From the IMG/VR virus record IMGVR_UViG_2681813421_000002, positions 22,586 through 86,585 of that record: 64,000 nucleotides of DNA, one strand, 5' to 3'. Below the pieces are notes generated by a model that was given only the letters and a program-made list of their open reading frames with translations, was not told the DNA's origin and made no database searches. Each line of letters starts with the position of its first letter. The first letter of the stretch is position 1. The DNA comes from a virus. Its lineage: Duplodnaviria > Heunggongvirae > Uroviricota > Caudoviricetes. Of this stretch, positions 1 through 64,000 are shown piece after piece. Position numbers and translations under genes: made by a program.

Positions 1-775
1 CGTACAATTCGTCGCTGAACGACAAAGCCTTGATACTCATATCGTCATTCAGTCTGAAAAATGCACGGTCTTGCCAGTTAACCGCAACTGTGGTTGCAAC
101 CTTACCAGCTTCTATATGACTCATGATCTCGTCGGATAGCAGGTCCACTTTTTTGCAGCGGACCGCGCCGCCATCATCAAGCAATGCTTTTAAGGTCGCT
201 TCCTCACCGGCACGGAAACCGTTCGGGAAGCCATTTTTAATCCAGCCAGTGATGGTCAGTTCTAATGGGTCTTTCGGAGAGAAGGGGACAACGGGCAAGC
301 TGCCAAGCGATTTCCGTAACAAAGCCAGCTGATCCTCTGCTTTTTTAGCACTGCTGGCCTCGACAAAAACCAGATGATTGCTTCGGTCTATCAGGATTTT
401 AGCTACTGATTTTCTCGTGAAAGCGCGAGGAAGAAGAGAGTGAAGCACTTCATCCTTCAGCGAATCTTTTTCGGTCTTCTTCAGCTTTCTGTCTTGCTCT
501 TCTTCAAGTTTCAGGATTTTTTTCTGTAACTCTTCTTTGAGTACTTGAGAAGGTAGGATTTTTTCCTCTCGTTTATGCTGCATCAGAAGAAAACCCTGGT
601 ATTCATGGGTGAGGTTGTCGCCAAGAACGGGGGTCCAACCAGCTTTAGCCATATCCTGAGAACCGCATGGGGTAAACACAAACTTGCTAAGGGCTGCATT
701 TACTTCTGCAGTATCCCAGCTAACTTCGCGTGAAAGACGATAGATGAAGATATTTTTGAAAGCGACTGATCTCAT
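1..775 (-). CDS. rdgC: RdgC-like recombination-associated protein (partial; C-terminus lies beyond window start)
   Basis: Minus-strand frame open from ATG at 773-775 to position 2; translation [19 protein letters not shown]...[14 protein letters not shown]...REEKILPS closely matches the E. coli RdgC N-terminal region as I recall it. Confidence 0.75.
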
Positions 776-786
776 GTCTCACCATA

Positions 787-824
787 TGTGTTAGAAAATA
801 CATATTAATTATCTAACACAAATG
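787..824. promoter_or_regulatory. Operator-like dyad (TGTGTTAGA ... TCTAACACA) just upstream of rdgC-like start
   Basis: Two copies of the dispersed TTTCTAACA core in inverted orientation, 12 bp upstream of the start codon. Confidence 0.5.
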
Positions 825-834
825 GGTGCATTTT

Positions 835-1488
835 CTATCCTTTCTTGAAATCGAAGTTGCTAGCAGTGGCCTGAAAGGTTCCTCCTGCCTTGAAAGCTAT
901 GTCTCCGTTAGCGGTGACAGCAATATTTTCCCCTTTAACATTGATGTTGTTGGCTGATTTGACGTTAACACTCCCTCCTGCATTCACGATTACATCAGCC
1001 GGACCAATGATATATATCTGCCCGGACTCATTCATGCCAATCCTTGAGCCTGCAGCCGTATTGGCAATTTCATAGCCGCCACCAGCAGTTCGTACTTCAA
1101 GAATATTGTTGCGGTGAATAACGAAGTCTTTCGTTGCTGAGATTTGGGGGCGGGGAGGCGCTCCATCTACTTCCGGCGGCGTCCAGCCGTTGCCTTTGCC
1201 AGATGCTTCTGGTGCAACGTTTGGAATTCCTCCCGGTGCATCCTGAGCGGCACCAACTATCATTGGGCGTCTGGTGTCTATTCGACCGTTAACATCTAAA
1301 TAAGGAAACTCTACCCAGACCAGGTCACCTTTGACTGTGGGTACAAAAGCGTTTCCGATGGGTAACAGGTATTCCGCCCAGGGTAGATCGTCATCAGGAA
1401 CGCCATTCCAGTCAGGTAAAACACGGACTTGAGCACGCATAAGCCCTGCCGGGTGCACAGTTCCAACAATTTGCGCTCTACGCTTCAT
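835..1488 (-). CDS. Baseplate spike/hub-like protein (gpV/gp5-like)
   Basis: 217 aa; N-terminal motif GDLVWVEF...P.IVGAA typical of phage baseplate spike OB-fold, C-terminal short beta-strand repeats (VNVKSANNINVKGENIAVTANGDIAF). Confidence 0.45.
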   Translation of the reverse strand: MKRRAQIVGTVHPAGLMRAQVRVLPDWNGVPDDDLPWAEYLLPIGNAFVPTVKGDLVWVEFPYLDVNGRIDTRRPMIVGAAQDAPGGIPNVAPEASGKGNGWTPPEVDGAPPRPQISATKDFVIHRNNILEVRTAGGGYEIANTAAGSRIGMNESGQIYIIGPADVIVNAGGSVNVKSANNINVKGENIAVTANGDIAFKAGGTFQATASNFDFKKG

Positions 1489-2465
1489 TTGTTCGGCACT
1501 CCCAATATCATTCGTGTTGTGTAGCCTACGCGGTCTTCAAAGTGCGCAACATTTTTTACTATCAGCTTACGGGGCATTGATTCATCAATGCGGTTTTCCT
1601 GGTCATAGCGGTATACGATAATCTCTATCACCATCCCCGGTTTTATATCAGGATTGCCTGCGACTTCTATATCCATTTTGGGGACGAGAGACAGCTGCAT
1701 ATTGCGAAGAGTTTCCATATCAGAGTCGGATATATAACGCACTGGGAGTGAGCTATCGCCATATTCGACGTAGCCATCGGTCATGGAATACCCAACAAAA
1801 CGATATTGATTCTTTGCTGTTGTCGCATGTTCCTGTTGGAGTAGGCGCATTTTGGACAAAGTGTATTCTGCTTTAGGGTTATTCCCCTCGTAGGTAAATG
1901 ATGGCGTTTGCTTCATCAGATCAGCCAGGGTGTAAAAGTTAAATTCCCCCCGGCATACCCAACATAATGCACCTTTGTCTCGCGCTATCTCCGAAAGCAT
2001 TTTTGACGGTTTGTCACCGGCATTCAGATGATATGTAACTGCGCGTTTTAGCACGCTGCTGGTAATTTTAAGCTTGCCGGAATATGCCTTGAATATAGCG
2101 TCTGGTGTTTTGTTGGTATGTAAATTTGTGCGCGGGGAGGGGATCTTAAACCTGCGCACGTCTTCACTGACAGCAATAACGGTAACAACATCACCAGCCA
2201 GCATTGCAGACGTAACAAAGAAATCTGTTTTAAAAGTGCCTGCATTACCGTTTGGATCGCCCATTTCAGCCACCAGCGATGCACCGTATTTGGCTTTCCA
2301 GTCATCAATTACGGTGCCGGTAGCGTCATGAATTTCCAGTTTTAGCAAAGGGGCTTTGAGGCTGGTTTTTTCTACATATACTGCGGTAAAAATCCAGTCT
2401 CGTGGCACTTTGTTATCGTTAATGAGCACTGACTGTAGAAAATATTGTTGTAACTCCTGGGCCAC
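1485..2465 (-). CDS. Hypothetical phage protein, co-oriented with spike-like gene (possible virion/baseplate module)
   Basis: 326 aa ORF with 4-bp start/stop overlap with neighbours, typical of structural operons. Confidence 0.45.
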   Translation of the reverse strand: MAQELQQYFLQSVLINDNKVPRDWIFTAVYVEKTSLKAPLLKLEIHDATGTVIDDWKAKYGASLVAEMGDPNGNAGTFKTDFFVTSAMLAGDVVTVIAVSEDVRRFKIPSPRTNLHTNKTPDAIFKAYSGKLKITSSVLKRAVTYHLNAGDKPSKMLSEIARDKGALCWVCRGEFNFYTLADLMKQTPSFTYEGNNPKAEYTLSKMRLLQQEHATTAKNQYRFVGYSMTDGYVEYGDSSLPVRYISDSDMETLRNMQLSLVPKMDIEVAGNPDIKPGMVIEIIVYRYDQENRIDESMPRKLIVKNVAHFEDRVGYTTRMILGVPNK

Positions 2466-2468
2466 TTA

Positions 2469-3236
2469 TCACCCCATAGATATCGAGGTTTCGGTAATAA
2501 TACGTTTTGCGTCCAACTCCCATGCTGTGATCACGTCTGTAATCACACTTATCGGCGCTTGTGTGGCATAAATACGCTCTTCTCCAATTGGTGCTGAAAC
2601 ATCCGTAAAGCCGACTTCTTTGGCATCCTGTATCGAGCAAATCAGCGGGACCGGGACACGAACAAGGTGAGTGGTTGCTTCAAATTGTGTACCTGTCATC
2701 AGGCGAAGCCGTGCGCCCAGCGAATTACACATCAGACTCATGGTCGCTTTATCAGTTGCCATTAACGTAACGTCATACGTCAGAATGGCCTGGGTGTATT
2801 CCAGTTCTGCTAAAGGCATTCCGGTATCTGGTTCGCAAAAACTGGCTACTTTTTTGCGGTCAATCTGCTGATCATCGTTGATATAATTGATATCCATAGT
2901 GCGTGAGATATTGACCAGGGGGAGAGCATCCCGGTTAATGTTCTGGTTTTCAGGTTTTCTCCCTTGCCCGGCATTTGCGCGACGAACTGCTTTAAGAAAC
3001 TCGATCGCATTGTCGAAACGGGCCATATAGACACGCTCTGCTGGTGGACGATTCAGGAATGACGCAAAGCGTTTTTCTTCCGGCGCGGGGGCCACCAGTA
3101 AGATATCAGAAAAAATGTTGCTGATTAGCGTCGCAAACGCGTTATCCACGTTTTCAAAGCCCGTGGTCTGGAATTTTCCTGTGCGTAAGGTTTGCCATTC
3201 ACCGGTTCGCGCCAGGAGGGTTTTATTTGAAGTCAT
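2469..3236 (-). CDS. Hypothetical phage protein
   Basis: 255 aa ORF, tightly packed with flanking genes. Confidence 0.45.
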   Translation of the reverse strand: MTSNKTLLARTGEWQTLRTGKFQTTGFENVDNAFATLISNIFSDILLVAPAPEEKRFASFLNRPPAERVYMARFDNAIEFLKAVRRANAGQGRKPENQNINRDALPLVNISRTMDINYINDDQQIDRKKVASFCEPDTGMPLAELEYTQAILTYDVTLMATDKATMSLMCNSLGARLRLMTGTQFEATTHLVRVPVPLICSIQDAKEVGFTDVSAPIGEERIYATQAPISVITDVITAWELDAKRIITETSISMG

Positions 3237-4036
3237 TCGATCACTCCGTTTTGAGTCGTATCAAAATTTCTGGCAGGTATGCAGTAGTAAAGCGAACCAA
3301 CATGCTGTGTGCCGTAGCTAAAAATACGGTGCACGTACCACCAGCGGCGGGCTACGCCGTTTACCATCTCTTCATTCCATTCAAGAATTGAGCCGACGGG
3401 GACGTTATTTGCTGCAATACGCAGAATCAGAACATCATCGGTTAAGCCATCCTGCTCACCGTCTGCGTCAATCGCATGGAAAGAGTCACGCCCGTCAGGG
3501 TTATCCAGCACATAAACGATTTCAGGTTCCTGGTAAGTCAGTTCGCGTTGGTTGTTATCCAGTTCAGTGAATGACTCTTCTCCTGTTTCGTCGCTGACTA
3601 CCCCATATGTGCCAACATCTGGTCGATATAAGAGAGCCTGAAACGCGTCTGGGCTGGATTCAATAATCAGCATCCAGTCTGCGCGGATTTGGTCGTTAAA
3701 GGCTTTATGCCCGTTATAGCGTGCTTTTAACTGTGGAGTCGGTTCTCTCCCAGCCAGGGAAGATGGAAGTATGGCTATATCTGATTCGCCAGCATCCGAA
3801 GTAAGGCCACCGTTGCTATCAGCAAAATTATCATGGCTATCAGCTTTGGCGGCGGGTTGCTCTTCCAGAATGCTGAATGAATCCGAACCGGTATTGCCAT
3901 GTTCCGGCGCGCCTCCTGCATTCGCTTCAATCGGTGCTGGCGTTTCTCTCTGCGTGCTGTCATGTTCTGACTCCTTACTTGCCAGGTTTGCATCGTCAGC
4001 AAACCATTCGTCAAAACGGCCCATAAGCATCCTCAA
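3233..4036 (-). CDS. Hypothetical phage protein with acidic, low-complexity N-terminal half
   Basis: 267 aa ORF; N-terminal D/E/S/G-rich region. Confidence 0.45.
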   Translation of the reverse strand: MRMLMGRFDEWFADDANLASKESEHDSTQRETPAPIEANAGGAPEHGNTGSDSFSILEEQPAAKADSHDNFADSNGGLTSDAGESDIAILPSSLAGREPTPQLKARYNGHKAFNDQIRADWMLIIESSPDAFQALLYRPDVGTYGVVSDETGEESFTELDNNQRELTYQEPEIVYVLDNPDGRDSFHAIDADGEQDGLTDDVLILRIAANNVPVGSILEWNEEMVNGVARRWWYVHRIFSYGTQHVGSLYYCIPARNFDTTQNGVIE

Positions 4037-4186
4037 AGGTCGATCTGTCAGGTATCGAAAGGAAGATTTTCGGGAGATTGTGATTTTGGATGAAGGAGGG
4101 GGAATTCATAAAATGCACTTGCGCACAGTGCAACAGTGCGCTATAGTTATGGCATTCGGTAATCATCACGGAGGATCAAATGACTA

Positions 4187-4489
4187 ATGACCAAAAAAAT
4201 TAACATAAAGGATTTCAGGGATGCGTGGCTTGATGATTTTTTTGAATTTTCAACACCACATAGAAAGATACCTCCTGATATTCATATGACATTGTCACGG
4301 AAGTTGGACATTATCAATGCCGCAACTACCTGTAAGGATTTAAGATCACCACCAGGTAATCGGTATGAGGAACTGTCAGGGAAGCTAAATGGCTATTCAT
4401 CAGTAAGGGTGAATAAGCAATATAGGTTAATTTTTAAGTGGGTTAACGGAAAGGCCGAGGACTTGTATCTCGACCCTCACAAATACTAA
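4187..4489 (+). CDS. higB: HigB toxin (plasmid-maintenance killer family, Vibrio/Rts1 type)
   Basis: 100 aa; motifs RKL.I..AA....DLR.PPGNR.E.L.G.L.G..S.RVNKQYRLIF.WV.G...YLDPHKY match HigB-type RelE-fold toxins. Confidence 0.8.
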   Translation: MTKKINIKDFRDAWLDDFFEFSTPHRKIPPDIHMTLSRKLDIINAATTCKDLRSPPGNRYEELSGKLNGYSSVRVNKQYRLIFKWVNGKAEDLYLDPHKY

Positions 4490-4559
4490 AACAGATACCC
4501 GGTTACGGACCGGGTTCTGACCAGAGTCCACTTAATACGCACGCTAGTAAGGGCAAAAA

Positions 4560-4898
4560 ATGAAACAGGCAACCAGAAAACCGACGACCGTAGGTGATAT
4601 CCTGCTGTACGAATACCTGGAGCCGTTAGAGCTGAAGATCAACGAGTTAGCAGAAATACTTCATGTTCATCGTAACACCGTAAGTGCTCTTGTTAATAAT
4701 AATCGTAAGCTAACGATGGATATGGCATATCGCCTGGCAAAAGCATTCGATACTTCTGTAGATTTTTGGATTAATCTCCAGACCGCAGTAGACCTGTGGG
4801 AAGTCGAAAATGACATGCGCGTTCAGGAAGAGTTAAGTCGTATCAATACTGCTGAAAAATTTATTTCTCAGCGGAACCTGAATAAAAAAGCAGCCTGA
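4560..4898 (+). CDS. higA: HigA antitoxin (XRE-type HTH)
   Basis: 112 aa; VGDILLYEYLEPLEL...HVHRNTVSALVNN HTH region, toxin-first gene order characteristic of higBA. Confidence 0.8.
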   Translation: MKQATRKPTTVGDILLYEYLEPLELKINELAEILHVHRNTVSALVNNNRKLTMDMAYRLAKAFDTSVDFWINLQTAVDLWEVENDMRVQEELSRINTAEKFISQRNLNKKAA

Positions 4899-5374: not shown

Positions 5375-6115
5375 ATGAGCACTGATTCATCAATAGAAAA
5401 GGAAAATGAAAAATCATCCGCCCAAAATCTGATAGAAGATGCTGTAAAAGATAAGTTGTTTAATAAGGTTTTTGCCTACATTTTTATTTCATTTTTAATT
5501 TCTAACTGGCGAGATATATTTATATTGTTGAAGTCAAAAGATGATGTTATGTATACATTATCTATGGTGTTTGTTGGGGAAAAGATTCCATTATTTGGGA
5601 ATGTTTTTGTACCCTCATTCGTAGCTCATTTTGTCTTGCCTTTTATTTATGGTGTTGTGGCTTCAATATTAGCCCCAATGTTAACTTTACTAATTTCTAT
5701 GGTGACTGGCACAATATACGCTAAATTGAGAGAGATAGATAAAATTGAAGACAAAAAAGAACAAGTAAGAAAAATTAACAGAGACATTAATGATCTTACT
5801 AAGAAACGGAAAGACGTTGAAGAGCGTCTTGAAAAAGAAAAAGAAGAACATGAATCATTAAAAAGAAAGGTAGAAGAAGTTAGGGAACAGATTGAATGTG
5901 TGGATAGCGATATCCGTCATGTTATTAAATTATATAGAGAGAAAGGTGAGAGCTTAAATTCGTTGGATGATTTTTATGAATTTTTTACTGCCGTGAAAAA
6001 CTCATCTTTTCGTTCGGGTGATACAAATGACAGGGAGACACTTGAGGAGATTCTCTCAAAGCTTTCTGATTCACTTGAAAAAATTAAATGCGATGCTAAT
6101 AAAAAGGTGGGATAA
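5375..6115 (+). CDS. Membrane protein with long C-terminal charged coiled-coil (unknown function; AT-rich gene)
   Basis: 246 aa; hydrophobic segments (FAYIFISFLISNW; FVPSFVAHFVLPFIYGVVASILAPMLTLLISMVTGTIY) followed by K/E-rich heptad-like region; visibly AT-rich versus flanks. Confidence 0.6.
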   Translation: MSTDSSIEKENEKSSAQNLIEDAVKDKLFNKVFAYIFISFLISNWRDIFILLKSKDDVMYTLSMVFVGEKIPLFGNVFVPSFVAHFVLPFIYGVVASILAPMLTLLISMVTGTIYAKLREIDKIEDKKEQVRKINRDINDLTKKRKDVEERLEKEKEEHESLKRKVEEVREQIECVDSDIRHVIKLYREKGESLNSLDDFYEFFTAVKNSSFRSGDTNDRETLEEILSKLSDSLEKIKCDANKKVG

Positions 6116-6126
6116 ACCCACCTTTG

Positions 6127-7317
6127 TTAATTTTTTATGTACTCCATGAACATTTTTTCAGCTTGTGCTGGTGGTGTTCCAGCCATGACAAGCGCATCAA
6201 TGAACGCCTGCTTCTTCAGTGCGAACTGATCGGCAAGGCGTTGCTGAAGTTCCTTATTTTTCTGTTTCTCACGTTGCAAGGCCGCTTCTTTTGCAGCCGC
6301 CCGTTTTTTCTGTGCGTCTGACAACTTTCTGGCCCTGGTCAATTGGTCACGTAGCTTGTCGATATTGCCGTTGTCCTTTGCCAGTTTTGTACTTAAAGCT
6401 GCCTGGCGCTTCTGATAGAGCCTCCATTCGCGTTTGGCGGCTTCAACGTTTGTTTTACTGCTTCGATTGCGATTAAACTCCTTCTCGTCTTCTTTTGAGA
6501 AGTGTTTGGTTGTACGGCGGCGATCGTCACCAAATGCAATTTGCGTTGCAGCCTTTTGTAGCGCACGAGCAATACTCATTTGCCAACTGGCGGACTGTAA
6601 CCGCGTCATTGAGTGGATCACGTGTTTACAGGCGACGCCTTGCAGCTTCGGGTTGCGAACTTTTGGATAGGCGTATTCTTTTGGCGGGGCCAGGGCAAAG
6701 TTACCCGCAGTAGCGATGTAACGATACCAGTATTGATGACGACCACAGTCACAATCGAAAGACACTCGCCCGGCGCACAGTGATTTAGTGATTTTGAGAG
6801 CTGATTTATCGTCTTCTGCGATGTCATCGACCATCTGATCCCATTCTTCAAAGCGTATCCGGACGATATGGTGCTGGTGGACGGATATATCCGATGCTTC
6901 TACGCGGATATTAATCACGTTGTGGCGAAGAGATACGGGGGTAGCTCTTTTGATACCAGATCCGTCATCCACGGCGTTATTTGCACGCTTAATATCGATT
7001 GCCTGGCTGGATGCCACCAGCTGGGCGTATGTGATGCCAGCCGTCTTGCTGTCATATTTTTCGCGTGTTTTACTCCGTAGCTTTTCGAAACCTTTCAGGT
7101 CGTCTCGCGTGAAGAACGTGCCGCCTTTTTTCTTCCCTAACTTGAGAATATCTTCGGCGGATTTGTTCCTCAGTCCACCTGGCGTCAGCGTCCGGTGAGC
7201 TTGTCGGCGCTTACGGGTTTGTTCTTTCCTGATAATCTCGAATATACGCGTGAAGTCCTTAGAGGACAGACCGTCAGTGATATAGCGCCCGTCCTGGTTT
7301 TTCAGGAAATCAGGCAT
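6127..7317 (-). CDS. Hypothetical protein with SWIM-like zinc-finger motif and C-terminal basic coiled-coil
   Basis: 396 aa; CDCGRHQYWY...CKHVIHSM (CxC-x-C-x-H pattern), K/R/A/Q-rich C-terminus. Confidence 0.5.
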   Translation of the reverse strand: MPDFLKNQDGRYITDGLSSKDFTRIFEIIRKEQTRKRRQAHRTLTPGGLRNKSAEDILKLGKKKGGTFFTRDDLKGFEKLRSKTREKYDSKTAGITYAQLVASSQAIDIKRANNAVDDGSGIKRATPVSLRHNVINIRVEASDISVHQHHIVRIRFEEWDQMVDDIAEDDKSALKITKSLCAGRVSFDCDCGRHQYWYRYIATAGNFALAPPKEYAYPKVRNPKLQGVACKHVIHSMTRLQSASWQMSIARALQKAATQIAFGDDRRRTTKHFSKEDEKEFNRNRSSKTNVEAAKREWRLYQKRQAALSTKLAKDNGNIDKLRDQLTRARKLSDAQKKRAAAKEAALQREKQKNKELQQRLADQFALKKQAFIDALVMAGTPPAQAEKMFMEYIKN

Positions 7318-7639
7318 TTTCTATCTCCGGTTCCGCGCTTGCGTAATCACGGATCTTGTTCCTCAGCCATGCCACATCAGGAAGAGTTAACGTGGTCCCT
7401 GCGGGCATTTCTTCCATTTCTGACTCATGGCCCACCAGCACCCGGAATACCCAGCGCAAATCTGCATTGCCATACGCCCTGTAGGCTGCAAGGTCTGAAC
7501 GATATACTTCATCAATCTTTATCGTGTACTGGAAATTATCAGAGTGATACTCCGATACCCGCTTAATCATTTCCTGGTGAAACAGCGCACGAAAAATATC
7601 GTCTTCAATGTACCTATCGTCGAGTCTGCTATAGCCCAT
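7310..7639 (-). CDS. Hypothetical protein
   Basis: 109 aa ORF overlapping start of downstream gene by 8 bp. Confidence 0.4.
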   Translation of the reverse strand: MGYSRLDDRYIEDDIFRALFHQEMIKRVSEYHSDNFQYTIKIDEVYRSDLAAYRAYGNADLRWVFRVLVGHESEMEEMPAGTTLTLPDVAWLRNKIRDYASAEPEIENA

Positions 7640-7822
7640 AACAAAGCCTCTCAGTCATAACCTGGTGGAAACTGTATGCAGGGTGTGAAATGCGAGAAAC
7701 AGACAGGCCACCAGTTCAGGGGGATGTGGTTCATAAATCCCCTCACTGGTGACAAGTGACTTTCATTAATCTTTATGCGGGGGCCAGCTTCATTTGCTGG
7801 CATTAGATTAAAAATTAAACGG

Positions 7823-7957
7823 AGTGAATGACATGGATGTTATCTTCGAATTATTAATGCTAATTGATCTGTTTATGAACGCTTCATTGACCACGCAAAT
7901 ACTGGCGTCAATATTTTTGTTACTCTTCTACCTGGTATTGAGGGAGTTAACAAAGCT
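7823..7957 (+). CDS. Small hydrophobic peptide (44 aa), possible membrane-active small protein
   Basis: ATG preceded by GGAG at about 8 nt; MDVIFELLMLIDLFMNASLTTQILASIFLLLFYLVLRELTKLLM; not in the supplied ORF track (below its size cut-off). Confidence 0.25.
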
Positions 7958-7967: not shown

Positions 7968-8621
7968 TCAAAGTATCACGGTATCTTCATCAACTTCTTT
8001 CCCAGCCAGTGACTTTGGCTGGGAGGTGCCTGCTTTAACTTTTTCATGCCCAATAATGGACAGGAACGAAGCGAGTATGCCTGTTTTTTGCTCTTTCTCG
8101 ACTGTACCGATCATCTGCTCTACGTAATCCGCACTGGCAACGTTGTGGTATACGGTCGCGTAGCAACACAGGACCATCAGAATATGTTCCGGCCTGATAT
8201 CCTGCCAGTTCACCCGGTAGACTTCTTCTCCGTTACCGTTGTATTCGGTGTCAACGATGGAGTCAGGGATTTCGAAAGCACCTTTGTTATTTTGCGGCAG
8301 GGATAATAGCTTCTGGAGTTTTAACTCTCTGTATCTTTCCATCCCGACGATGATTGCTGCTCTGCCATCGGCATGACGGGTCTTGAGAGTCACCTGGCTT
8401 GCTCCGGTGCCAGCGGAGATCGTTGGCGTTATTTCGTCTACCAGTACCTTAAATTTGCTTTTCCGCAGGGCTGCTATAGCTGGAGGAATTTTTTGCTTTT
8501 GCTCCAATGCTGACGCGGGAAGGGGTTTTACTTCGTTAATAATGAGAGCACCGTCTTTCAGTATTGCAGTGAGCATTTGAGGCTTGCTGGTGGTCAGGCT
8601 GAATATTGCGATCTTTTCCAT
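7968..8621 (-). CDS. Hypothetical protein
   Basis: ATG at 8619-8621 preceded by GGAGG; the longer track ORF (to 8663) would start on a GTG inside an upstream terminator hairpin. Confidence 0.5.
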   Translation of the reverse strand: MEKIAIFSLTTSKPQMLTAILKDGALIINEVKPLPASALEQKQKIPPAIAALRKSKFKVLVDEITPTISAGTGASQVTLKTRHADGRAAIIVGMERYRELKLQKLLSLPQNNKGAFEIPDSIVDTEYNGNGEEVYRVNWQDIRPEHILMVLCCYATVYHNVASADYVEQMIGTVEKEQKTGILASFLSIIGHEKVKAGTSQPKSLAGKEVDEDTVIL

Positions 8622-8648
8622 TGTCCTTCCTCCACGGATGACGGATAC

Positions 8649-8672
8649 AAAAAAAGGCCGCACATGGCGGCC
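8649..8672 (-). terminator. Rho-independent terminator (minus strand)
   Basis: GGCCGC-ACAT-GCGGCC hairpin followed on minus strand by a 7-T run. Confidence 0.45.
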
Positions 8673-55358: not shown

Positions 55359-55663
55359 CCATGAAAAGCTCTTTAATTAATTCCAAATTACACCAACTTG
55401 CTATCAAAAATCGAGTTCCTGCATGGTCGGTTTACATGCATATCAGCCGCGCATGTCTGAGCAATGAAAACATTTACAATCTGCAAATTCTAAGCCGGGA
55501 AGGCAGGACTTTGTTTAGCGTTGCAGAGGATTCCTATAAGGCCTGGGATATGCTGGATGACGCGTTAAGCCAATACGCGCAAACAGAAGAATGCCAAAAA
55601 GAATGGGCCAGGTACTGTGATGAAGGGATGCCATGCTGCGGTCTATTCGGCGCAGCTCTGTGA
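55359..55663 (+). CDS. Hypothetical protein (first gene of two-gene plus-strand cassette)
   Basis: Start taken at MKSSLINSK; Cys-rich C-terminus. Confidence 0.4.
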
Positions 55664-55675
55664 ATCGATTCAACG

Positions 55676-55939
55676 ATGATATACTTCGTTGCGAATCACA
55701 GCATTGGCAAAGGGCATATTGTGAAACAACTCCCACCAAACACCCCGGAAACTATAATTGAAATCCGCCAGCGAATGGGGCTAACGCAAACGGAGTTAGC
55801 CCACAAAATGGGGTATCAACTCCGGGCTTGGCAATTCAAAGAAGATAGAAATAAACCGAGACGCCTTATGGCTGGTGAATTTGAGTACCTGTTATTGCTT
55901 GCTGGAGAGCATCCTGAATTTATTCTTACACCACGCTAA
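55676..55939 (+). CDS. XRE-type HTH DNA-binding protein
   Basis: 87 aa; IRQRMGLTQTELAHKMG HTH. Confidence 0.5.
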   Translation: MIYFVANHSIGKGHIVKQLPPNTPETIIEIRQRMGLTQTELAHKMGYQLRAWQFKEDRNKPRRLMAGEFEYLLLLAGEHPEFILTPR

Positions 55940-55960
55940 AAAAACCCGCCTGACGGCGGG
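55938..55960 (-). terminator. Rho-independent terminator (strong on minus strand, weaker on plus)
   Basis: CCCGCC-TGAC-GGCGGG with a 7-T run on minus strand. Confidence 0.55.
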
Positions 55961-55973
55961 ATTATCAATCATA

Positions 55974-56267
55974 TCAATTCACATCAATGTCTTGATATGA
56001 TTCGCCAGTATCGTCTTCGTCGTCAGGATCTCCTTCCACCTCTGGCCACTCAACCTCCCAGCCAACAGTTTCCAGGCTCCGCAGAACAAACACCCCATCG
56101 GCATGAATGGTATTCACGATCCCCATTGCGGAATTTGTGTTGATAAAGCGTAAATCTTGCGCAATATTTTCTTCCGAAATATCGCCTTCAAATATACGCA
56201 ATGTGCCGTCATCAGAGCATTCAACAATCCCTCTAATCCCAGCGGGACTCACAATGCTATACTTCAT
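55974..56267 (-). CDS. Small acidic protein at distal end of Dar operon
   Basis: 97 aa, D/E-rich C-terminus. Confidence 0.35.
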   Translation of the reverse strand: MKYSIVSPAGIRGIVECSDDGTLRIFEGDISEENIAQDLRFINTNSAMGIVNTIHADGVFVLRSLETVGWEVEWPEVEGDPDDEDDTGESYQDIDVN

Positions 56268-59200
56268 TTTGCAACTCCTTCATACATCCCAAGAAAAATT
56301 CCAGCACGCCGTCATTGTTTAATACAGAGTTAGTCGCCTGCTCCGGATCGGCATACATCTGCAAGGCCATAGAAAAAATCTCAGTCGCCCTGCAATTGCT
56401 TAATGCAGGTGGCTTTGATATAAATCTGCCGCTGACAGAACTTACCGTATTTTCCATATAAATTTTAGACATATATCCATGACTTAGGTCGGTTCGCACC
56501 AAATACTCAGCACTGCCACGGCTACCAATATTATGATAAGAAACTTTACCGTTAGTTTTTGATTTAATGAAGGCTTTGGCCCTCTCCAATAGATGGGGAT
56601 TTGAATGTTCTATATGGTGACCTATTTCATGCCATAATACACGCTCGTGATCACTATTAGCATCAATTGTTATATTCCCATTTCGACTTGCAAAAGCACG
56701 AACATTGTTCTTGTGGTTAATATTTTTTAATGTAGATAAAGTCCCTCCTGAAATAATATAGGCTTTTTCAATCGTCTCGCGAATACTGTATGCTTTACGG
56801 GAGAAAGTTTCATTATCGTGACCACTTAACTGCTCTGCTTCATCAGAAATAGCAATCCCACGACTCCATTCCTTAGACTGGTCATGTGACACATTTGACG
56901 ATTCAAGAATCATGTCAAATGCGGCTCTGACTTTTTTATGTACTACATTTTCAAGCGCATTAGGATAGGCTTTTTGTCCACGTGTTAATGAAGCTATTTC
57001 ATATAGTTCTGCTTGCAAGTCTTCCGGTATGTCCAGATTAAAAACAAGCATTTTTTTCAGATCATATCCAATCCCATGATCATTCTGGTGCAAAACCTCA
57101 GCAAGGTAGTCAGTGAGTTTTTCCTTATTTGACCTAACTTTATTGATTTGTTCTATAGTAAAGTCAACACGCTCCTTGATTCCGTAATATGAGGAATGCT
57201 CTGCTAATTCCACTATCTCCTTAAGCCTGACAAGTGTCTCAATATACGCATCAGCGATCTCCTCTGCCGTTAGTTCAGAGCTAACTCCGACACTGGCTGT
57301 TATTTTCCTACCAGCCGCCATAATATCGTCGATATTATGCAAGCTCTTTTTGAATAACTTCAAAGTATTTTGGATTATGCACACCATCTCTTCTGCGCTT
57401 CCAGCTTTATTCATTTCCTTTCTAAATCTTAAAGCTGTTTTCTCTGCAATAGACGCTGGAGATTTTAAATAGTTACCTAACCAAACAAGACAACCATTGC
57501 GCAATTCATCAATACTAAAGTCATCAGGAATATGTTTTGCTGCATTATGTAAAACACGTATAAATTGTTCAGCGGGCACGCCTTCTTCTGATATGTTGCA
57601 AAACGTTTCAATATCACAATCAATATTTCTTTCATCTGCGAGCGAAGGAGCTTCATCTCCTTTTTCAATCGCGTCACGCAGTGCGTTAGCATAAAAATTG
57701 CTGCGTTGATAAGACAATAACATCGTTGTTAACACAGCGTCGCTGTATCCATAACGTTTAGCCCACTCCTTAATCTCATTAACGGTGACATTGCGAATAT
57801 AAAAACCAAGTTCCAAAAATACATTGCGCTTTATTTTTTTTGCGGACTCCTTAATTTTTTCTGACACCTTCACGATTCGGATCAAGTCCTCCACGCTGGT
57901 CGCATCAGCAATTAGCTTTGAAATGTATGGTTCGACATCTCCTGAAACCGATTCAAACATGGCGAAATTAAGCCCTTTACCTTCGCCATACTCAGCCTCA
58001 ATTTCATCAGAAACGGCAGATAAAATGCTACGCAGATCGACATCTCCGCCGCCGAACATATCGCCTAACGCTTGTTGCTGGTGAATAAGTTCATCGTTAA
58101 TTTTTTGCGCCAGTTTCTTGAAAGCTGCCCCCATTCGCTTAGCGCTTCGGTTGTTGGCAACAATAAACAGAGCAAGCGCTTCTGCTTCCGGAGTGCTATC
58201 TCCAAACAATCCACGCTGTGCGATCACCTCTTCTACTGCCTGACCGTTATCTTTTGCTTCACGAACAAGGTTAATTGCTTCCTGTAGCGCGGCAATAGCC
58301 TGTTTATCCAGACCATTCAATTGCTCTATACCGTCTACCAGTCCGGTTACCGTGTCATGGTGAACATCACCTGAAAGCGACTGCATTTGCGCAAAATCGC
58401 TGGCTGCCGTATTTAATGCGGTAAGAATGTTACGCATTTCCGGATCTGGCTCTTCCGCCACCAGCCGAACAAGCCTTTCATCCTTGTACGCTTTGGCAAA
58501 AATTGCATTCTGGATGCGGTCGATAAGTTGTTTCGTTGGACGCCCATCGGCAGTAAGCAAACCTGCCGTCGCCGTATCACCTATTTCGCGCAAAAACGCA
58601 CGAATAAACGCATCATTGGACCGCGCCAGTAGATTTCCATCATCTGAAGGATTAAATAGCGCCATGACGCTCTCAGTGAGAAATTGCGCATCCGCATACG
58701 CTTTTTCACTTGCAGCCATCTCTTGCAGATCGCTGATGTTTGAATCACGGGCAAATTGTGCGCGGTCTACATCTGTGAGTCTTTCTCGCACCAATACGGG
58801 CATAGACATTTGTGAAATGTCGTCAGGATTCAGACCAAACTCTTTTGCATGATCGATCAGGTACTGGCGATATTCATCCGCCTGCCCTTGCTCATAGGCA
58901 CGCCAGATACCCATGCTCCTTCCGTTGCCGGATTCAACAACGTTGTCCGGACCAACTATCGGCGCTCCGTGGCTGCTCATGCCGGAATCCGTTAATTGTG
59001 CCGGGCGTAAATTGGAGGCAATACGGTTAACCTGGAGTTTGCTTGATAGCCGTGTACGGTCACGTGGCTGGAGTTCTTCCGGGAAGGCCGGATTAATCGT
59101 ACCGTCAAGGTTGTTCGAAATGATCAGACTGCTGGCATCAACGACCTTAAAAGCCGTCTTTACCTCTGCCCCTTTACTGGTGACTACGTAACTACTGCGC

Positions 59201-59298
59201 CCCTGGCGTGTTTCTCGCCTCTCTAATGAAGAAACCAGCGCAATAACACTGTTAATGTCTGCTGCTTCGGATAGCGCGGAAGTAACTGACTTGTTCAA
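56257..59298 (-). CDS. ddrB: DdrB-like large virion-associated antirestriction component with C-terminal HExxH motif
   Basis: 1013 aa; position and size match P1 ddrB; WHEIGHHIEH near C-terminus. Confidence 0.5.
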   Translation of the reverse strand: MNKSVTSALSEAADINSVIALVSSLERRETRQGRSSYVVTSKGAEVKTAFKVVDASSLIISNNLDGTINPAFPEELQPRDRTRLSSKLQVNRIASNLRPAQLTDSGMSSHGAPIVGPDNVVESGNGRSMGIWRAYEQGQADEYRQYLIDHAKEFGLNPDDISQMSMPVLVRERLTDVDRAQFARDSNISDLQEMAASEKAYADAQFLTESVMALFNPSDDGNLLARSNDAFIRAFLREIGDTATAGLLTADGRPTKQLIDRIQNAIFAKAYKDERLVRLVAEEPDPEMRNILTALNTAASDFAQMQSLSGDVHHDTVTGLVDGIEQLNGLDKQAIAALQEAINLVREAKDNGQAVEEVIAQRGLFGDSTPEAEALALFIVANNRSAKRMGAAFKKLAQKINDELIHQQQALGDMFGGGDVDLRSILSAVSDEIEAEYGEGKGLNFAMFESVSGDVEPYISKLIADATSVEDLIRIVKVSEKIKESAKKIKRNVFLELGFYIRNVTVNEIKEWAKRYGYSDAVLTTMLLSYQRSNFYANALRDAIEKGDEAPSLADERNIDCDIETFCNISEEGVPAEQFIRVLHNAAKHIPDDFSIDELRNGCLVWLGNYLKSPASIAEKTALRFRKEMNKAGSAEEMVCIIQNTLKLFKKSLHNIDDIMAAGRKITASVGVSSELTAEEIADAYIETLVRLKEIVELAEHSSYYGIKERVDFTIEQINKVRSNKEKLTDYLAEVLHQNDHGIGYDLKKMLVFNLDIPEDLQAELYEIASLTRGQKAYPNALENVVHKKVRAAFDMILESSNVSHDQSKEWSRGIAISDEAEQLSGHDNETFSRKAYSIRETIEKAYIISGGTLSTLKNINHKNNVRAFASRNGNITIDANSDHERVLWHEIGHHIEHSNPHLLERAKAFIKSKTNGKVSYHNIGSRGSAEYLVRTDLSHGYMSKIYMENTVSSVSGRFISKPPALSNCRATEIFSMALQMYADPEQATNSVLNNDGVLEFFLGCMKELQNEV

Positions 59299-59391
59299 AA
59301 TACACTCCCCTTACATAGAAAGCAGGAAGTGTAAAAAGTGTGTGATTTATGGACTTACAGGAAAGTGAAAGGGGCATTTCAGCCCCTTTGA

Positions 59392-59766
59392 TTACCCTGC
59401 ATAACCGTTGGCTTTCACCCAGCTTATGGTCTGCTCTTTAGCCTGTTCCAACGTAAGGAACTCGCCAACATAGTTTGAGATCCCACGCAGCGCATCAATA
59501 AATTCCATTTGTGTGGACTTTGTGAACACACCGCCCAGGAAGTCAGTCACTATCTTAGGAACTTCATCTGCAACAGGATCAGACTGTGGGTGCGGTTGCG
59601 GTTCCGATATCGGTTGAGCGGCAGCACCCAGCCCCAGCTTAAGCATCAGATCAACAATCTGCTTACCAATTGCGACGCGTTGTAATACTGGCGCGGTTTT
59701 CTGCGCCTGCATTAAATCTGATAGCTCTTTACCCAATTTCAGACGGTCTAAAACAGAGATAGTCAT
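59392..59766 (-). CDS. ddrA: DdrA-like protein (positional call)
   Basis: 124 aa between darA-like and ddrB-like genes. Confidence 0.4.
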   Translation of the reverse strand: MTISVLDRLKLGKELSDLMQAQKTAPVLQRVAIGKQIVDLMLKLGLGAAAQPISEPQPHPQSDPVADEVPKIVTDFLGGVFTKSTQMEFIDALRGISNYVGEFLTLEQAKEQTISWVKANGYAG

Positions 59767-61709
59767 TAAGCACCTCCCTGCTGAATTTCAGCCAGGATGT
59801 TGATCAGGTAGTCAACTGCTGCGCCAACCGTTGATTCGTTCTCGTCGTATCGACCAGCACTGATAAGAGCGTTTGCAGCTTCCTGCACATGGTCAAGTTC
59901 GGCACTGATTACCGTCAGATCGCGGGATGTAAACTGCACCGGGACGGATTTAAGGTACTCCAACGCTTTATCTGCTTCCTGATCAGCTTCAGTTGCCGCT
60001 TCTCCAGCGTCTTCCGGCGTTGGCTGTTGCTCTGGTTCTGTTTGTGGGTGGGATTCTGGCTCAACTACAGGTGCTAATTCAGGCTCTGGCGTTGCTTCGT
60101 TTGAATGATTTTGAAGGGCGTTATATACGTCCATAATGAAAAGGTTCTCCCCATCACCAAGCGGATAAGCCACGTTTGGAAACGCTTTGCGGAAAAGAAT
60201 TTTCACTTGCGCCTTGAATGTTTTCAGGTCACTGCCAAACAGGTCTACATAGCCATCAATATGTTTCGACATGCTGGACACAACCAATTGGCCTGCAAAA
60301 TCTTTCAGCTCATCTTCATCAGGAAGATAGAGCAACTCGTACTGGCTGACTTCTTCATCTGTCAGTTTACGGTCATACGTAATGATACCGTGACGAGCAT
60401 ATTCATAATACTGATCAGCCTGGTCAGGACGATCAAGCACGGCTTTATTTCCATCCGGAACAGCACCAACACCAGCCGGACGAGATTGAAGTGCATAGTG
60501 GTATTTACCTACATCCTGGCTCTCTGGTTGTGATACTGGGTTCGTCTCGGGGTCTGTCTGTGGTGGTTCGGGGTCTTCCTGCTGGCCTGGTAACACATCA
60601 ACTTTATATTTATCTGCGTTATGCTCTCGGTAGGCTTTAAGTAATTTGGTTGCAGCATCTGCCAAACTGCCTCCTTTGACAGCACTGGCATCAATACTGA
60701 ATTTACCTTCAGGTGCTACTATCGTAACGAAATTATCACTGCCGGACGTGACATAATTAACTTCAGCGCCATTATCCAGCACTGTTTTTCCGTCAATGGC
60801 AAGATTATGTTTTACATGTCGCAGCTGGTCACTAAACGCTCGTTCTTTCGTTTTTTCACCTTTAGCAGACAACAATTTATCGCGTTTTGCTTGTAATTCC
60901 TCGTTGATGGCTTTCTGGGCATCAAGTTTTTTTTGCATCTCCGTAAGAGCAGCACGCTTTTCAGTCAGCCCACGTTGCGCAACTTCCACCTGATCAATCA
61001 TTATTGACCGTTCTTCTGCCAGTTTATCTGCTTCATTGAGATAACTCTCAATATCTGCCTTCATTTTGTCCTGGCGCTCTTTTGCTTTCTTAAATTTTTC
61101 GCTGTTACGCTCAATCAAATTAGATAGCGCCTGGCATACCTGGCTTAAAGAAACATCTCTCCCACCAATCGGGGCGACAACGTGAGTTACGTTACGTTTA
61201 TTAAGTAAAAACTGAAATGCAACAAGCTCGTCGTTACTCTTTATTTTTGCCCCGTCAGCTGTTGGAGAGTGGAAAATTATGCTTGTACTCTGCCCGTCAG
61301 TAAGCGGTATCTGCGCGGTCAAAACAGGGATATTAGCTACCCGACGTACACGACCGATAATCGCACCTCCAATACAATTACGTCCATTTTCATCGGTCCC
61401 AGCTTCATCAGTCCCTGCCATAATATTCGTACCATTCAGGCCACGATTCAGCGCACGGACGAAAGCTCGCATTGTTTGAGCTAACCGAATTCTGGTTGTA
61501 GTTATGGACTCAAACATAGCTTCGTCAGACACAACCAGAATTTCATTGCCCATATAGGCAAGCTCAATATCTTCTAAGGTCGCCGCCTCAAAAATCAGGT
61601 CATCTTCGCTTAATTCTTCTGAAGACCAGCGACTTGGCATATAGCCGGGGATCGTATCAGCAAAAGTAGACTGAATATTAATTCGTAAAGGATTGTTAAT
61701 CATGCTCAT
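59766..61709 (-). CDS. darA: DarA-like antirestriction/head protein
   Basis: About 647 aa; internal coiled-coil and Pro/Glu-rich linkers; operon position hdf-darA-ddrA-ddrB. Confidence 0.5.
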   Translation of the reverse strand: MSMINNPLRINIQSTFADTIPGYMPSRWSSEELSEDDLIFEAATLEDIELAYMGNEILVVSDEAMFESITTTRIRLAQTMRAFVRALNRGLNGTNIMAGTDEAGTDENGRNCIGGAIIGRVRRVANIPVLTAQIPLTDGQSTSIIFHSPTADGAKIKSNDELVAFQFLLNKRNVTHVVAPIGGRDVSLSQVCQALSNLIERNSEKFKKAKERQDKMKADIESYLNEADKLAEERSIMIDQVEVAQRGLTEKRAALTEMQKKLDAQKAINEELQAKRDKLLSAKGEKTKERAFSDQLRHVKHNLAIDGKTVLDNGAEVNYVTSGSDNFVTIVAPEGKFSIDASAVKGGSLADAATKLLKAYREHNADKYKVDVLPGQQEDPEPPQTDPETNPVSQPESQDVGKYHYALQSRPAGVGAVPDGNKAVLDRPDQADQYYEYARHGIITYDRKLTDEEVSQYELLYLPDEDELKDFAGQLVVSSMSKHIDGYVDLFGSDLKTFKAQVKILFRKAFPNVAYPLGDGENLFIMDVYNALQNHSNEATPEPELAPVVEPESHPQTEPEQQPTPEDAGEAATEADQEADKALEYLKSVPVQFTSRDLTVISAELDHVQEAANALISAGRYDENESTVGAAVDYLINILAEIQQGGA

Positions 61710-62316
61710 CCTCCAGGCGCGCGATTTCTTCTTTAAGAGCACGTGTCTTAGCTACTTCCTGAGACAAGGCAGCTTTAACGTTACCCGTATCTTGTATTAC
61801 TTTGTCTGACTTGCTCTGGAGTTTAGACAGTTTGTCGTTAGCATTAGCGATATCTTCACGGAGTGCATCACGTGATTCTTTCGCTTCAGCTAATTTCTGA
61901 GCGTTAGATTTAACTCCCTGCCGCTTCTTATTTCCGTCATCAATATTTTTTGCTGCACGAGCAAGTTTTCGAGCTAATGACTTCTGGAAAGAAGTTGCTC
62001 CGCGATTAAATAAAGCCGCAAGAGATTGCCCCAAAGCCGACATTGTTTTTACTGGCTTGAACGGTACTGTTTTACCATTCAGTTTGATCCCAGATATATC
62101 ACCGGTATCGTTAACCTGAACTTCCATTGTCTGTTCATCAATACCAATAAGGGTAAACGTGCGCGTCATGATCCCATCTTTCTTCCTGCCATTACTTGCA
62201 GGGATCACCCTCGCTATCTTGTAACCACCTTTGCTGATTTCTTTGACGAGTTTTGCCAGCCCCTTTTCGTTTAACTCATCATAATTAAGAAGAACATAAT
62301 TATTCTTATTTGACAT
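61696..62316 (-). CDS. hdf: Hdf-like protein (positional call)
   Basis: 206 aa between lydB-like and darA-like genes. Confidence 0.4.
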   Translation of the reverse strand: MSNKNNYVLLNYDELNEKGLAKLVKEISKGGYKIARVIPASNGRKKDGIMTRTFTLIGIDEQTMEVQVNDTGDISGIKLNGKTVPFKPVKTMSALGQSLAALFNRGATSFQKSLARKLARAAKNIDDGNKKRQGVKSNAQKLAEAKESRDALREDIANANDKLSKLQSKSDKVIQDTGNVKAALSQEVAKTRALKEEIARLEDEHD

Positions 62317-62752
62317 CCCAGTCTCCTTTACGCTTTTCGATCGTAAACTGGCGCTCTATGCAGTCATTGATAGGGAAAATGCGATAAAGCGGATTCAGTC
62401 GGCAGTTACCGTTAGTCAATGTGACTTTCAGATCCCACTTCGTTGGCTCAAGATATTTCGTATCGATGAGCAAATACTCTTCTCTCTCACCGCGTTTTGA
62501 GGCGTCAACTGGTCGCGTTTTCCCTGAAATAACCACAGATGGATTTTTCAGGTCTTGCAACCAATATTCGATTTGAGCATTGCTGACCCAGCTTCGCTTA
62601 ACACGTAGCGAAACAGGAAATGCTATAGCGGATTCTTTCACTACAGCGTCACCAATACTCAAAATCTCAACACTCTTGCGACGAAAAATGAAACGGTCAA
62701 TGATGGCAACAAATGCCATGATAAAAATGAAATAATTTCCAAAGTTACCCAT
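62306..62752 (-). CDS. lydB: LydB-like antiholin (positional call)
   Basis: 148 aa with N-terminal hydrophobic segment, downstream of holin-like gene. Confidence 0.45.
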   Translation of the reverse strand: MGNFGNYFIFIMAFVAIIDRFIFRRKSVEILSIGDAVVKESAIAFPVSLRVKRSWVSNAQIEYWLQDLKNPSVVISGKTRPVDASKRGEREEYLLIDTKYLEPTKWDLKVTLTNGNCRLNPLYRIFPINDCIERQFTIEKRKGDWDVK

Positions 62753-63078
62753 TATTTCTCTCCACCTTTTCCCCCATTCGCTATTACGCTTAAGAGATTC
62801 AAGACGTTACTAGCTCTGGACTTCAAGCCCTGTAAAATTTCACTACCGTTGTTACTGGCAATCAGAACAACGCAGAAAATGATACCTTCAGGCCATTCTT
62901 GGCTAACCGCCACCCCATACCCCGCAAGCCCGGCTGTTACCGCAGTAAACAATTCACTCGCAAGATTGAGCAGGGACGCAGAAATGCGCCCGTCTCTAAC
63001 TCCGAGAAGGAATACGCCGGTTCCACTTAGTAGGGATGTTATGACTACTACAGCCAGATTTTCATAATCTGCAAACAT
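62752..63078 (-). CDS. lydA: Holin-like membrane protein (LydA-like)
   Basis: 108 aa with three hydrophobic helices and charged C-terminus. Confidence 0.5.
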   Translation of the reverse strand: MFADYENLAVVVITSLLSGTGVFLLGVRDGRISASLLNLASELFTAVTAGLAGYGVAVSQEWPEGIIFCVVLIASNNGSEILQGLKSRASNVLNLLSVIANGGKGGEK

Positions 63079-63181
63079 ACCCCTCCAGAAATAACATCTA
63101 ATGCGCCACTAACTTAGTCAGTTTGTTATTTCCTTACAGGACATCTTCTAGGATCGTATCCTTAGCATACAAGGGAGACAT

Positions 63182-63220
63182 ATGCTTATTGGATACATTC
63201 GCATATCAACAAATGATGAT
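63182..63220 (+). pseudogene. Remnant 5-prime end of a second serine recombinase gene
   Basis: Encodes MLIGYIRISTND with its own AAGGGAG ribosome-binding site, then loses homology; the frame runs antisense into cin. Confidence 0.4.
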
Positions 63221-63294
63221 GCGCCGCGCGATAAATGCACTCTATCTTGTGCGATAAATGGCATCCACGCGGCGTTTCATTATTTGAAAAAGAA

Positions 63295-63867
63295 TTACAT
63301 TTCAGGTTGCGTTATGACAGTCCCAACAGGGTGATAGCGGTAGATCGTTGACAGTCCAATATCATAGATAATTGCCAGCCGCTTTCTGTCATACCCTTTC
63401 TGGAGCAATCTTGCGATCTGCTCATGCTGCTCCTTCGTCAGTTTCGGGCGACGTCCTCCAACTCTTCCTTGTGATCGCGCAGCAGCCAGTCCTGCCAGCG
63501 TGCGCTCAACTATCAGTTCACGCTCCATTTCTGCCAGTGCACCCATCATATGAAAAAAGAACCTTCCCATCGGAGTGCTGGTATCGATTGAATCCGTCAG
63601 ACTGCGAAAATTGACACCTTTTGCGCGTAGCTCTTCTGTGAGAGCAATGAGGTGTTTCATTCTTCTACCCAACCGATCCAGCTTCCAGACCACCAATGTA
63701 TCCCCTCTTTTAAGGCACTTTAAAGCGCGTTTCAGGCCTGGTCGTTCCGACTTGGTTCCGCTCATTTTGTCCTCAAAAATCTGTTCACATCCTGCGCACA
63801 TTAATGCATTGCGTTGCAAATCTGTGTTTTGGTCATTTGTTGACACACGTATGTAGCCAATCAGCAT
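63295..63867 (-). CDS. cin: Cin-type DNA invertase (serine recombinase)
   Basis: 190 aa; MLIGYIRVSTNDQNTDLQRNAL...GDTLVVWKLDRLGR...C-terminal HTH; closely matches P1 Cin/Gin/Hin family. Confidence 0.85.
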   Translation of the reverse strand: MLIGYIRVSTNDQNTDLQRNALMCAGCEQIFEDKMSGTKSERPGLKRALKCLKRGDTLVVWKLDRLGRRMKHLIALTEELRAKGVNFRSLTDSIDTSTPMGRFFFHMMGALAEMERELIVERTLAGLAAARSQGRVGGRRPKLTKEQHEQIARLLQKGYDRKRLAIIYDIGLSTIYRYHPVGTVITQPEM

Positions 63868-64000
63868 TAAAAATACTCCCTTTTGAGTGGTTAAAGTACT
63901 GAGATAATGTGGGGAGGATTTGAGAGATAAACGTTGGTTTGGGGGAAGGCTCGGCGCTGCCCGTTGGTGTACCGGTTCCATGGCCCACCGCCACACCGCC

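Follow-up and report, generated by a model that had tools for sequence, protein, structure and literature searches.

A 64-kb stretch of a probable D6-like phage-plasmid of the P1 group that follows the gene order of phage D6

Alignment of the window to phages D6 and P1

The stretch of DNA analysed here, hereafter the window, comprises 64,000 nucleotides of the IMG/VR virus record IMGVR_UViG_2681813421_000002 and carries the site-specific recombination, repressor and packaging genes of a P1-group phage-plasmid, which are closest to those of Escherichia phage D6. The window makes up ~64 kb of an element of roughly 90-96 kb, or about two thirds of it, so that a gene missing from the window need not be missing from the element. 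The block around the recombinase consists of the following features, with percentages, here and in the lists below, given as amino acid identities unless stated otherwise.

28454-29482, minus strand: dre, Cre-like tyrosine recombinase (99% to D6 Dre, 41% to P1 Cre; Pfam Phage_integrase)
29635-29666, no strand: rox, 32-bp target of Dre (exact match; the same as the two half-sites of rox that the D6 record annotates at its ends)
29877-30914, plus strand: c1, prophage repressor of D6 type (100% to D6 C1, 21% to P1 C1)
30943-34204, minus strand: pacB, pacA and lpa, terminase subunits and late activator (99-100% to D6; 56%, 21% and 31% to P1)

A preliminary description of this DNA had placed a cre/lox system next to c1 and pacAB. 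The adjacency is retained, but the recombinase and its site are Dre and rox, not Cre and loxP, and no loxP was found in the window at up to three mismatches. Dre is the Cre-like recombinase of phage D6 (PMC3553980). The immunity functions are also of D6 type, comprising a C1 unlike that of P1 and two C4-icd-ant loci, with no match for P1 Lxc in the window. By homology to D6 and P1, Dre acting on rox would cyclise the injected DNA and resolve plasmid multimers; the D6-type C1 repressor is predicted to hold off the lytic genes, Lpa to switch on the late operons, and PacA and PacB to carry out headful DNA packaging.

By a megablast search of three parts of the window in a phage collection, D6 was identified as by far the best phage match (coverage 70-76%, identity 96-98%), with P1, P7, RCS47 and SJ46 covering just 3-17% of each segment (3-15% for P7). 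In a direct blastn comparison with the complete records of P1 and D6 (MF356679 / NC_050154, 91,159 bp, circular), the window follows a single colinear path through D6, from 63.3 kb across the D6 origin to 31.6 kb:

window 9-24713: D6 63336-87098
window 25870-29650: D6 87379-91159
window 29651-63216: D6 1-31618

The D6-aligned share of the window is 80.8% at 96.6% identity, which gives 78.0% identical bases, vs. 13.5% (8.6 kb) aligned to P1 in scattered and partly inverted pieces, with 10.8% identical bases. Homologues of 73 of the 118 D6 proteins were found in the window by tblastn with a median identity of 98.5%; all of them are full-length open reading frames (ORFs), and all keep the order and strand they have in D6, with the exception of a weak match to an Ead/Ea22 paralogue and of the invertase.

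We conclude, with a probability of about 0.95, that the 64 kb of the window are an arc of a D6-like phage-plasmid belonging to the P1-g2 subgroup of the P1 group, and that its gene order is that of D6. The window contains the core shared across the P1 group in the broad sense (genes for morphogenesis, packaging, Dar, immunity and phd-doc). The element would be a temperate myovirus kept as a circular plasmid. Its lineage, that of phage D6 and P1-g2, is already known, and the non-P1 gene order is the normal and described order of D6. The P1 group of phage-plasmids splits into P1-g1, with P1 itself, and the D6-like P1-g2, with a weighted gene-repertoire relatedness (wGRR) of about 0.75 inside either subgroup and 0.23 across the two, and colinear blocks in inverted orientation have been noted (Pfeifer et al., PMC7969092). 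Surveys of D6-like elements cover Salmonella and E. coli (PMC6799933; bioRxiv 10.1101/2025.09.12.675607), the 2025 survey treats them as an established type of phage-plasmid in clinical Enterobacteriaceae (bioRxiv 10.1101/2025.09.12.675607), and a detailed comparison of P1 and D6 was published with the D6 genome (Gilcrease & Casjens 2018, per PMC6799933).

Close relatives of the element are found among sequenced plasmids. At about 96-98% identity, 36, 63 and 88 plasmid records cover at least 80% of the first, middle and last third of the window, respectively, those listed being plasmids of about 75-97 kb from E. coli or Salmonella, all non-mobilizable, and the middle third is covered to the same extent in 54 complete E. 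coli genomes. The closest record, E. coli p95_MLI121 (NZ_CP117014.1), covers the consecutive thirds to 85%, 87% and 100% at identities of 95.8-98.3% with its positions 18048-39860, 39861-64734 and 64735-83665, the last third matching at 98.3%. Both NZ_CP117014.1 and NZ_CP035876.1 cover this last third fully, including hxr, the long ddrB and the invertase, and differ from the window in several early-region cassettes within 1-45 kb. No record in the three collections searched matches the window end to end or identically.

Several observations weigh against the assignment to the D6 lineage. About 19% of the window, distributed over about eight cassettes, has no alignment to D6, and the 78% of identical bases, judged on 64 kb, lies below the species threshold, so that the element is a relative of D6 at the genus level and not D6 itself. 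The D6 arc of 45.8-61.6 kb, which contains plasmid replication, partition and glnS, falls outside the window, and as regards inducibility and particles the element is known here from its sequence alone. The International Committee on Taxonomy of Viruses (ICTV) sets the species boundary at an identity of at least 95% over the full length and requires about 70% or more nucleotide similarity across the genome for a shared genus. For the genus Punavirus, the aligned share and the identical bases shared by the window and P1 lie well below this value of ~70%, and D6 itself is placed outside Punavirus in the NCBI taxonomy.

Accessory cassettes, gene order and alternative origins

The window departs from D6 only in about eight replaced cassettes, in an invertase that has been exchanged and inverted, and in having tRNA-Arg where D6 has tRNA-Asn. 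The segments not aligned to D6 are:

5375-6115: a coiled-coil ORF, 39% identical to D6 orf73
8947-9964: two PHROG families of unknown function; D6 has a simB-like gene and orf80
14137-15939 and 18545-22114: ORFs of the early region, Ead/Ea22 proteins among them
24713-25870: a gene of ~360 aa (phrog_5902) after doc
35809-37008: an SPFH-domain gene in place of D6 tciA/tciB
55229-57953: hxr and the C-terminal two thirds of a ddrB of P1 length
63216-64000: the invertase

Those differences that were looked up occur in other D6-like plasmids too. Scanning of the non-D6 cassettes with Pfam, PHROGs and PADLOC gave matches limited to Ead/Ea22, the SPFH domain, the ddrB-ParB domain, resolvase and PHROG families of unknown function, and no defence system, resistance gene or transposase was found by these three scans. 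Matches of the coiled-coil ORF at 5375-6115 to JetC/LmuB (E about 1e-4) are weak and were judged non-specific. The ~360-aa gene at 24759-25841 (minus strand), absent from D6, belongs to phrog_5902, a family of unknown function; part of the large-terminase PHROG is matched weakly (E = 1e-8), and Pfam and PADLOC give no match.

The cassette in the dar/lysis operon contributes to hxr and a full-length ddrB (1013 aa, with an N-terminal ddrB-ParB domain) at 55974-59298 on the minus strand, whose P1 homologues are 42-44% identical in protein. In D6, the ddrB ORF is shorter and its match is limited to the N-terminal part of ddrB in the window (57943-59298), and NZ_CP035876.1 and NZ_CP117014.1 align unbroken across the hxr-ddrB region. 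The invertase lies on the strand opposite to that of cin in D6 and P1, and its DNA is 99% identical to a P88-like prophage record. In NZ_CP117014.1, the one record where the orientation was confirmed by annotation, the invertase has the same arrangement and is followed by two opposed tail-fibre assembly genes (84012-85017) and then by tail-fibre gene S; it appears that the invertase and host-range module was exchanged as a whole.

The most P1-like of the replaced segments lies in the tRNA-plp block:

35734-37840, minus strand: tRNA block Met(CAT), Ser(TGA), Thr(TGT), Arg(TCT) (ARAGORN)
35837-36664: SPFH-domain gene (Pfam Band_7)
37338-37712, plus strand: plp (96% to P1)

Positions 35548-38327, which contain tRNA-Met, the SPFH gene, a tRNA and plp, are 96% identical in nucleotide sequence to RCS47-type members of Punavirus (RCS47, MH422554), where the SPFH gene is annotated as such, and this match suggests that the P1-g1 and P1-g2 lineages exchanged DNA recently. 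The tRNA that comes first in the block, at 37764-37840 (minus strand), is Arg(TCT) vs. Asn(GTT) in D6 and P1; the two share the acceptor stem and differ in the D-loop, the anticodon arm and the T-stem. The same locus is annotated as Tyr in other P1-like phages, so that the anticodon has seemingly been swapped repeatedly at this one locus. The exact tRNA-Arg allele is present in 69 plasmid records, those listed being E. coli or Salmonella plasmids of 75-97 kb, and in no record of the phage collection. As to the D6 record itself, NC_050154 annotates its tRNA genes (7145-7850) on the plus strand, and ARAGORN puts them on the minus strand; by Rfam, the Thr and Arg tRNA homologues of the window are on the minus strand. 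The D6 Asn and Thr tRNAs are co-oriented with those of P1. The plus strand in the D6 record is probably a strand error. A tRNA-Met at D6 6084-6159, which has no annotation in the record, was also found by ARAGORN.

These P1-like features raise the question of whether the element is a recent P1-g1 x P1-g2 hybrid and not a plain member of the D6 lineage. Such an origin is suggested by the tRNA-SPFH-plp segment, by the presence of hxr and a long ddrB as in P1, and by hot, which is full length as in P1 and has in D6 a shorter ORF (48 aa) aligning only with the N-terminal part of the gene in the window. However, the P1-like patches total less than 9 kb, the low identity of hxr and ddrB to their P1 homologues indicates that they were not acquired from P1 itself, and every gene of the backbone and of immunity, packaging, recombination and replication is of D6 type. 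Other D6-like plasmids contain the entire 45-64 kb third of the window, where hxr, the long ddrB and the inverted invertase are located, and the tRNA-Arg allele is carried by the plasmids described above, about 75-97 kb among those listed. We consider a recent hybrid origin very improbable.

The comparison with P1 gives a different picture from that with D6. Homologues of 41 of the 104 P1 proteins were found in the window by tblastn (E-values between 3e-6 and 0); their median identity is 44%, and values above 85% are limited to ppp, pmgT/U, hot, humD, phd, doc and plp. The P1 hallmark genes named in the preliminary description were all located, by tblastn of P1 proteins and, for the tRNAs, by ARAGORN. 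Compared with the P1 map as a signed permutation, 40 shared genes make up 19 blocks that alternate in orientation; there are 18 breakpoints, and 21 adjacencies are conserved. The P1 adjacency is kept only in: i) lpa-pacA-pacB-c1-site-recombinase, ii) the tail genes 5, 6, 24, 7, 25 and 26, iii) pmgU-hot-humD-phd-doc, iv) ulx-darB, v) prt-pro, and vi) hxr-ddrB-ddrA-darA-hdf-lydB-lydA. Relative to the recombinase-c1-pac block, each of phd-doc, humD-hot, ref, both Dar operons, cin and the tRNA-plp block is placed otherwise than in P1, in agreement with the preliminary description, which had proposed a gene order different from P1 and a distinct P1-family lineage in place of a P1 or P7 variant. Its statement that IS1 and res-mod are not seen also holds, as blastn and tblastx searches of the window with P1 IS1, IS5 and the res-mod region gave no match; the complete D6 record has no res, mod or insertion sequence (IS) either. 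P1 lxc, c8, coi, sim, ban, ssb and lyz have no homologues within the window.

The opposite outcome, a colinear alignment with P1 at high identity over the full length, was looked for, and the 8.6 kb that align do so in scattered pieces. A P1 or P7 (Punavirus) variant recently rearranged by inversions, IS activity or deletions could account for the 41 P1 homologues and for the 88-100% protein identity of ppp, pmgU, hot, humD, phd, doc and plp, but is already refuted by the alignment, with its small aligned share and low median protein identity, and its probability is practically nil. The same follows from the low identity of the recombinase and of C1 to Cre and P1 C1, from the absence of loxP and of P1 C1 operators, from the small coverage by P7, RCS47 and SJ46, and from the lack of any IS in the window to drive a rearrangement. 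An assembly artefact, i.e., a contig joined from P1-like fragments, is just as negligible: nothing specific speaks for it beyond a mosaic identity (94-98%, with gaps) that is superficially suggestive of joins, and the gene order, without true breakpoints, equals that of the independently sequenced complete D6 and of complete circular plasmids such as NZ_CP117014.1 across consecutive thirds, with every D6 homologue a full-length ORF. All three origins (recent hybrid, rearranged P1 or P7, and assembly chimera) were considered and rejected on the evidence of alignment, gene order and gene type.

The D6-like element resembles P1 (Punavirus, P1-g1) in its lifestyle and functional repertoire, in immunity based on C4 antisense RNA and in a near-identical phd-doc, and differs from it by having Dre/rox in place of Cre/loxP and by the absence of P1 C1 operators and P1 late-promoter boxes. 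We infer that its map came to differ from that of P1 through an old divergence in which self-contained transcription units were shuffled, and that P1 was not rearranged recently to give it.

Other genes of the window

Two immI-like loci, part of the D6-type immunity, and the gene for lytic replication are located as follows:

10294-11592, minus strand: first immI-like locus with C4 RNA, icd and a Rha/Ant-like antirepressor (icd 97% and ant 85% to D6 orf83/orf82)
11505-11592, minus strand: C4 antisense RNA of the first locus (Rfam C4, 76.7 bits)
49975-51159, minus strand: second immI-like locus with ant, icd, C4 RNA and a1/b1 C4 targets (100% to D6 orf18/orf19)
50954-51039, minus strand: C4 antisense RNA of the second locus (Rfam C4, 71.9 bits)
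51107-51159, minus strand: a1/b1 C4 targets (Rfam c4-a1b1, 52.2 bits)
51320-52282, minus strand: repL, lytic replication (98% to D6, 27% to P1)

Both C4 RNAs lie upstream of an icd-antirepressor pair, and the two loci would modulate immunity, with RepL as the predicted function for lytic replication. A duplication of C4 has been noted for the D6-like plasmid pYU39_89 (PMC6799933). Just upstream of the first C4 locus there is a match to the Hfq-binding small RNA isrK at 11637-11715 on the minus strand (59.4 bits vs. a gathering score of 50 in Rfam); the second locus has the c4-a1b1 target element instead of an isrK match.

The genes for the tail, the head, antirestriction and lysis, with mat and the invertase, are:

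835-4036, minus strand: tail and baseplate genes 5, 6, 24 and 7 (98-100% to D6, 22-47% to P1; order as in both)
6127-7639, minus strand: tail genes 25 and 26 (98-100% to D6, 41-57% to P1)
7968-8663, minus strand: mat, maturation control (100% to D6, 32% to P1)
41802-49184, minus strand: ulx and darB, antirestriction (99-100% to D6, 44-46% to P1)
49260-49745, plus strand: D6 orf16, 'baseplate hub subunit and tail lysozyme' per the D6 record (100% to D6)
52483-55177, minus strand: pro and prt, head processing and portal (98-99% to D6, 43-51% to P1)
55974-63078, minus strand: hxr, ddrB, ddrA, darA, hdf, lydB and lydA, the dar/lysis operon (97-100% to D6 where D6 has the gene)
63319-63867, minus strand: serine invertase of the Cin/Gin family (72-73% to P1 and D6 Cin; Pfam Resolvase and HTH_7)

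The orientation of pro-prt relative to darB is inverted compared with P1. The Dar proteins, carried in the head, would block host restriction, and the serine invertase is expected to switch tail-fibre variants.

The toxin-antitoxin pairs and the remaining genes and operons are:

2-775, minus strand: hrdC, RdgC-like, truncated by the left edge of the window (90% to D6 HrdC, 54% to P1)
4187-4898, plus strand: toxin-antitoxin pair D6 orf70/orf71 (100% to D6 orf70 and orf71)
12262-12840, minus strand: ref, recombination enhancement (97% to D6, 56% to P1)
16711-18527, plus strand: ppp (98% to D6, 88% to P1) and pdcB (96% to D6, 39% to P1)
23285-24723, plus strand: hot, humD, phd and doc (89-100% to P1, 90-100% to D6)
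25843-28380, minus strand: operon of isaA, orf114 (DUF2829), dut, orf116 and orf117 (96-99% to D6)
39075-41402, minus strand: pmgS, pmgR, orf11 and pmgM (98-100% to D6; pmgS 21% and pmgM 57% to P1)

The hot-humD-phd-doc genes form one of the few stretches highly similar to P1. The orf70/orf71 pair, of the type named higA-higB (PMC6799933), separates tail genes 7 and 25, which are direct neighbours in P1. Together with phd-doc, this second toxin-antitoxin pair would kill cells that lose the plasmid.

Candidate regulatory motifs and their significance

The P1 C1 operator (ATTGCTCTAATAAATTT) has no match in the window at up to three mismatches, and the P1 late-promoter pattern has a single match, which corresponds to the chance level; the window does not use the control sequences of P1. 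By a mismatch-tolerant k-mer scan of the intergenic DNA of the window we found two other recurrent motifs. The first is an asymmetric 14-mer, TGTTAGAAAAYTAA, with 15 sites at up to two mismatches vs. 0.99 expected, and is a candidate operator of the D6-type C1:

789-818: inverted pair upstream of hrdC
12252 and 12905: flanking ref
17476: between ppp and pdcB
28439: in front of the orf117-dut-isaA operon
29762 and 29849: preceding c1
34283: at lpa
39059 and 40308: at pmgS/pmgR
51252 and 52456: at the second C4 locus and repL

The genes bearing this motif are largely the set controlled in P1 by the operators Odmt, Oref, Ossb, Oc1, Olpa, OpmgR, Oc4 and OrepL, of which Odmt lies upstream of uhr-hrdC-dmt. 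The second motif, AAATMACAWWCT followed by a -10-like hexamer, has seven exact sites, all intergenic, vs. 0.19 expected, and is a candidate Lpa-dependent late promoter box of D6 type:

4075-4086: towards gp7
8767-8778: towards mat
34244: towards lpa-pacAB
49169: towards darB
49204: towards orf16
55218: towards prt-pro
63120: towards lydA
59337: a similar site with one mismatch

These boxes parallel LPmat, LPpac, LPpro and LPdar of P1, and the D6 arc outside the window has one such box, between R and gene 16, at the very place of LPs in P1. Counting against both assignments, the motifs were derived from the same sequence in which they were tested, so that the shuffle statistics are optimistic and the motifs are a lead and not a result. 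Both may be new, and both may already be reported in Gilcrease & Casjens 2018. Taking the two points jointly, we regard it as possible, and on balance doubtful, that the element is an unnamed species in an unclassified D6-like genus or that TGTTAGAAAAYTAA and AAATMACAWWCT are a newly found C1 operator and Lpa box.

By our count, about 14 of the 18 breakpoints between P1 and D6 fall in intergenic regions with either motif, which suggests that each shuffled block brings its own control element. If the motifs are what they appear to be, the P1 and D6 lineages would have changed the DNA words of both regulators and kept them before the same genes despite the shuffling of blocks, i.e., before hrdC, ref, the isaA operon, lpa, pmgR/S, C4 and repL for the operator, and before mat, prt, lydA, pac and R/gene 16 for the late box.

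The correct label of the element is a D6-like (P1-g2) phage-plasmid with Dre/rox and not a P1 or P7 variant with Cre/lox, and the label has little importance beyond that. D6-like plasmids are common and often unrecognised in E. coli and Salmonella pathogens (bioRxiv 10.1101/2025.09.12.675607), so that surveillance benefits from typing them correctly. Finally, the comparison of P1 and D6 illustrates the evolution of phage-plasmids by the shuffling of self-regulated transcription units.

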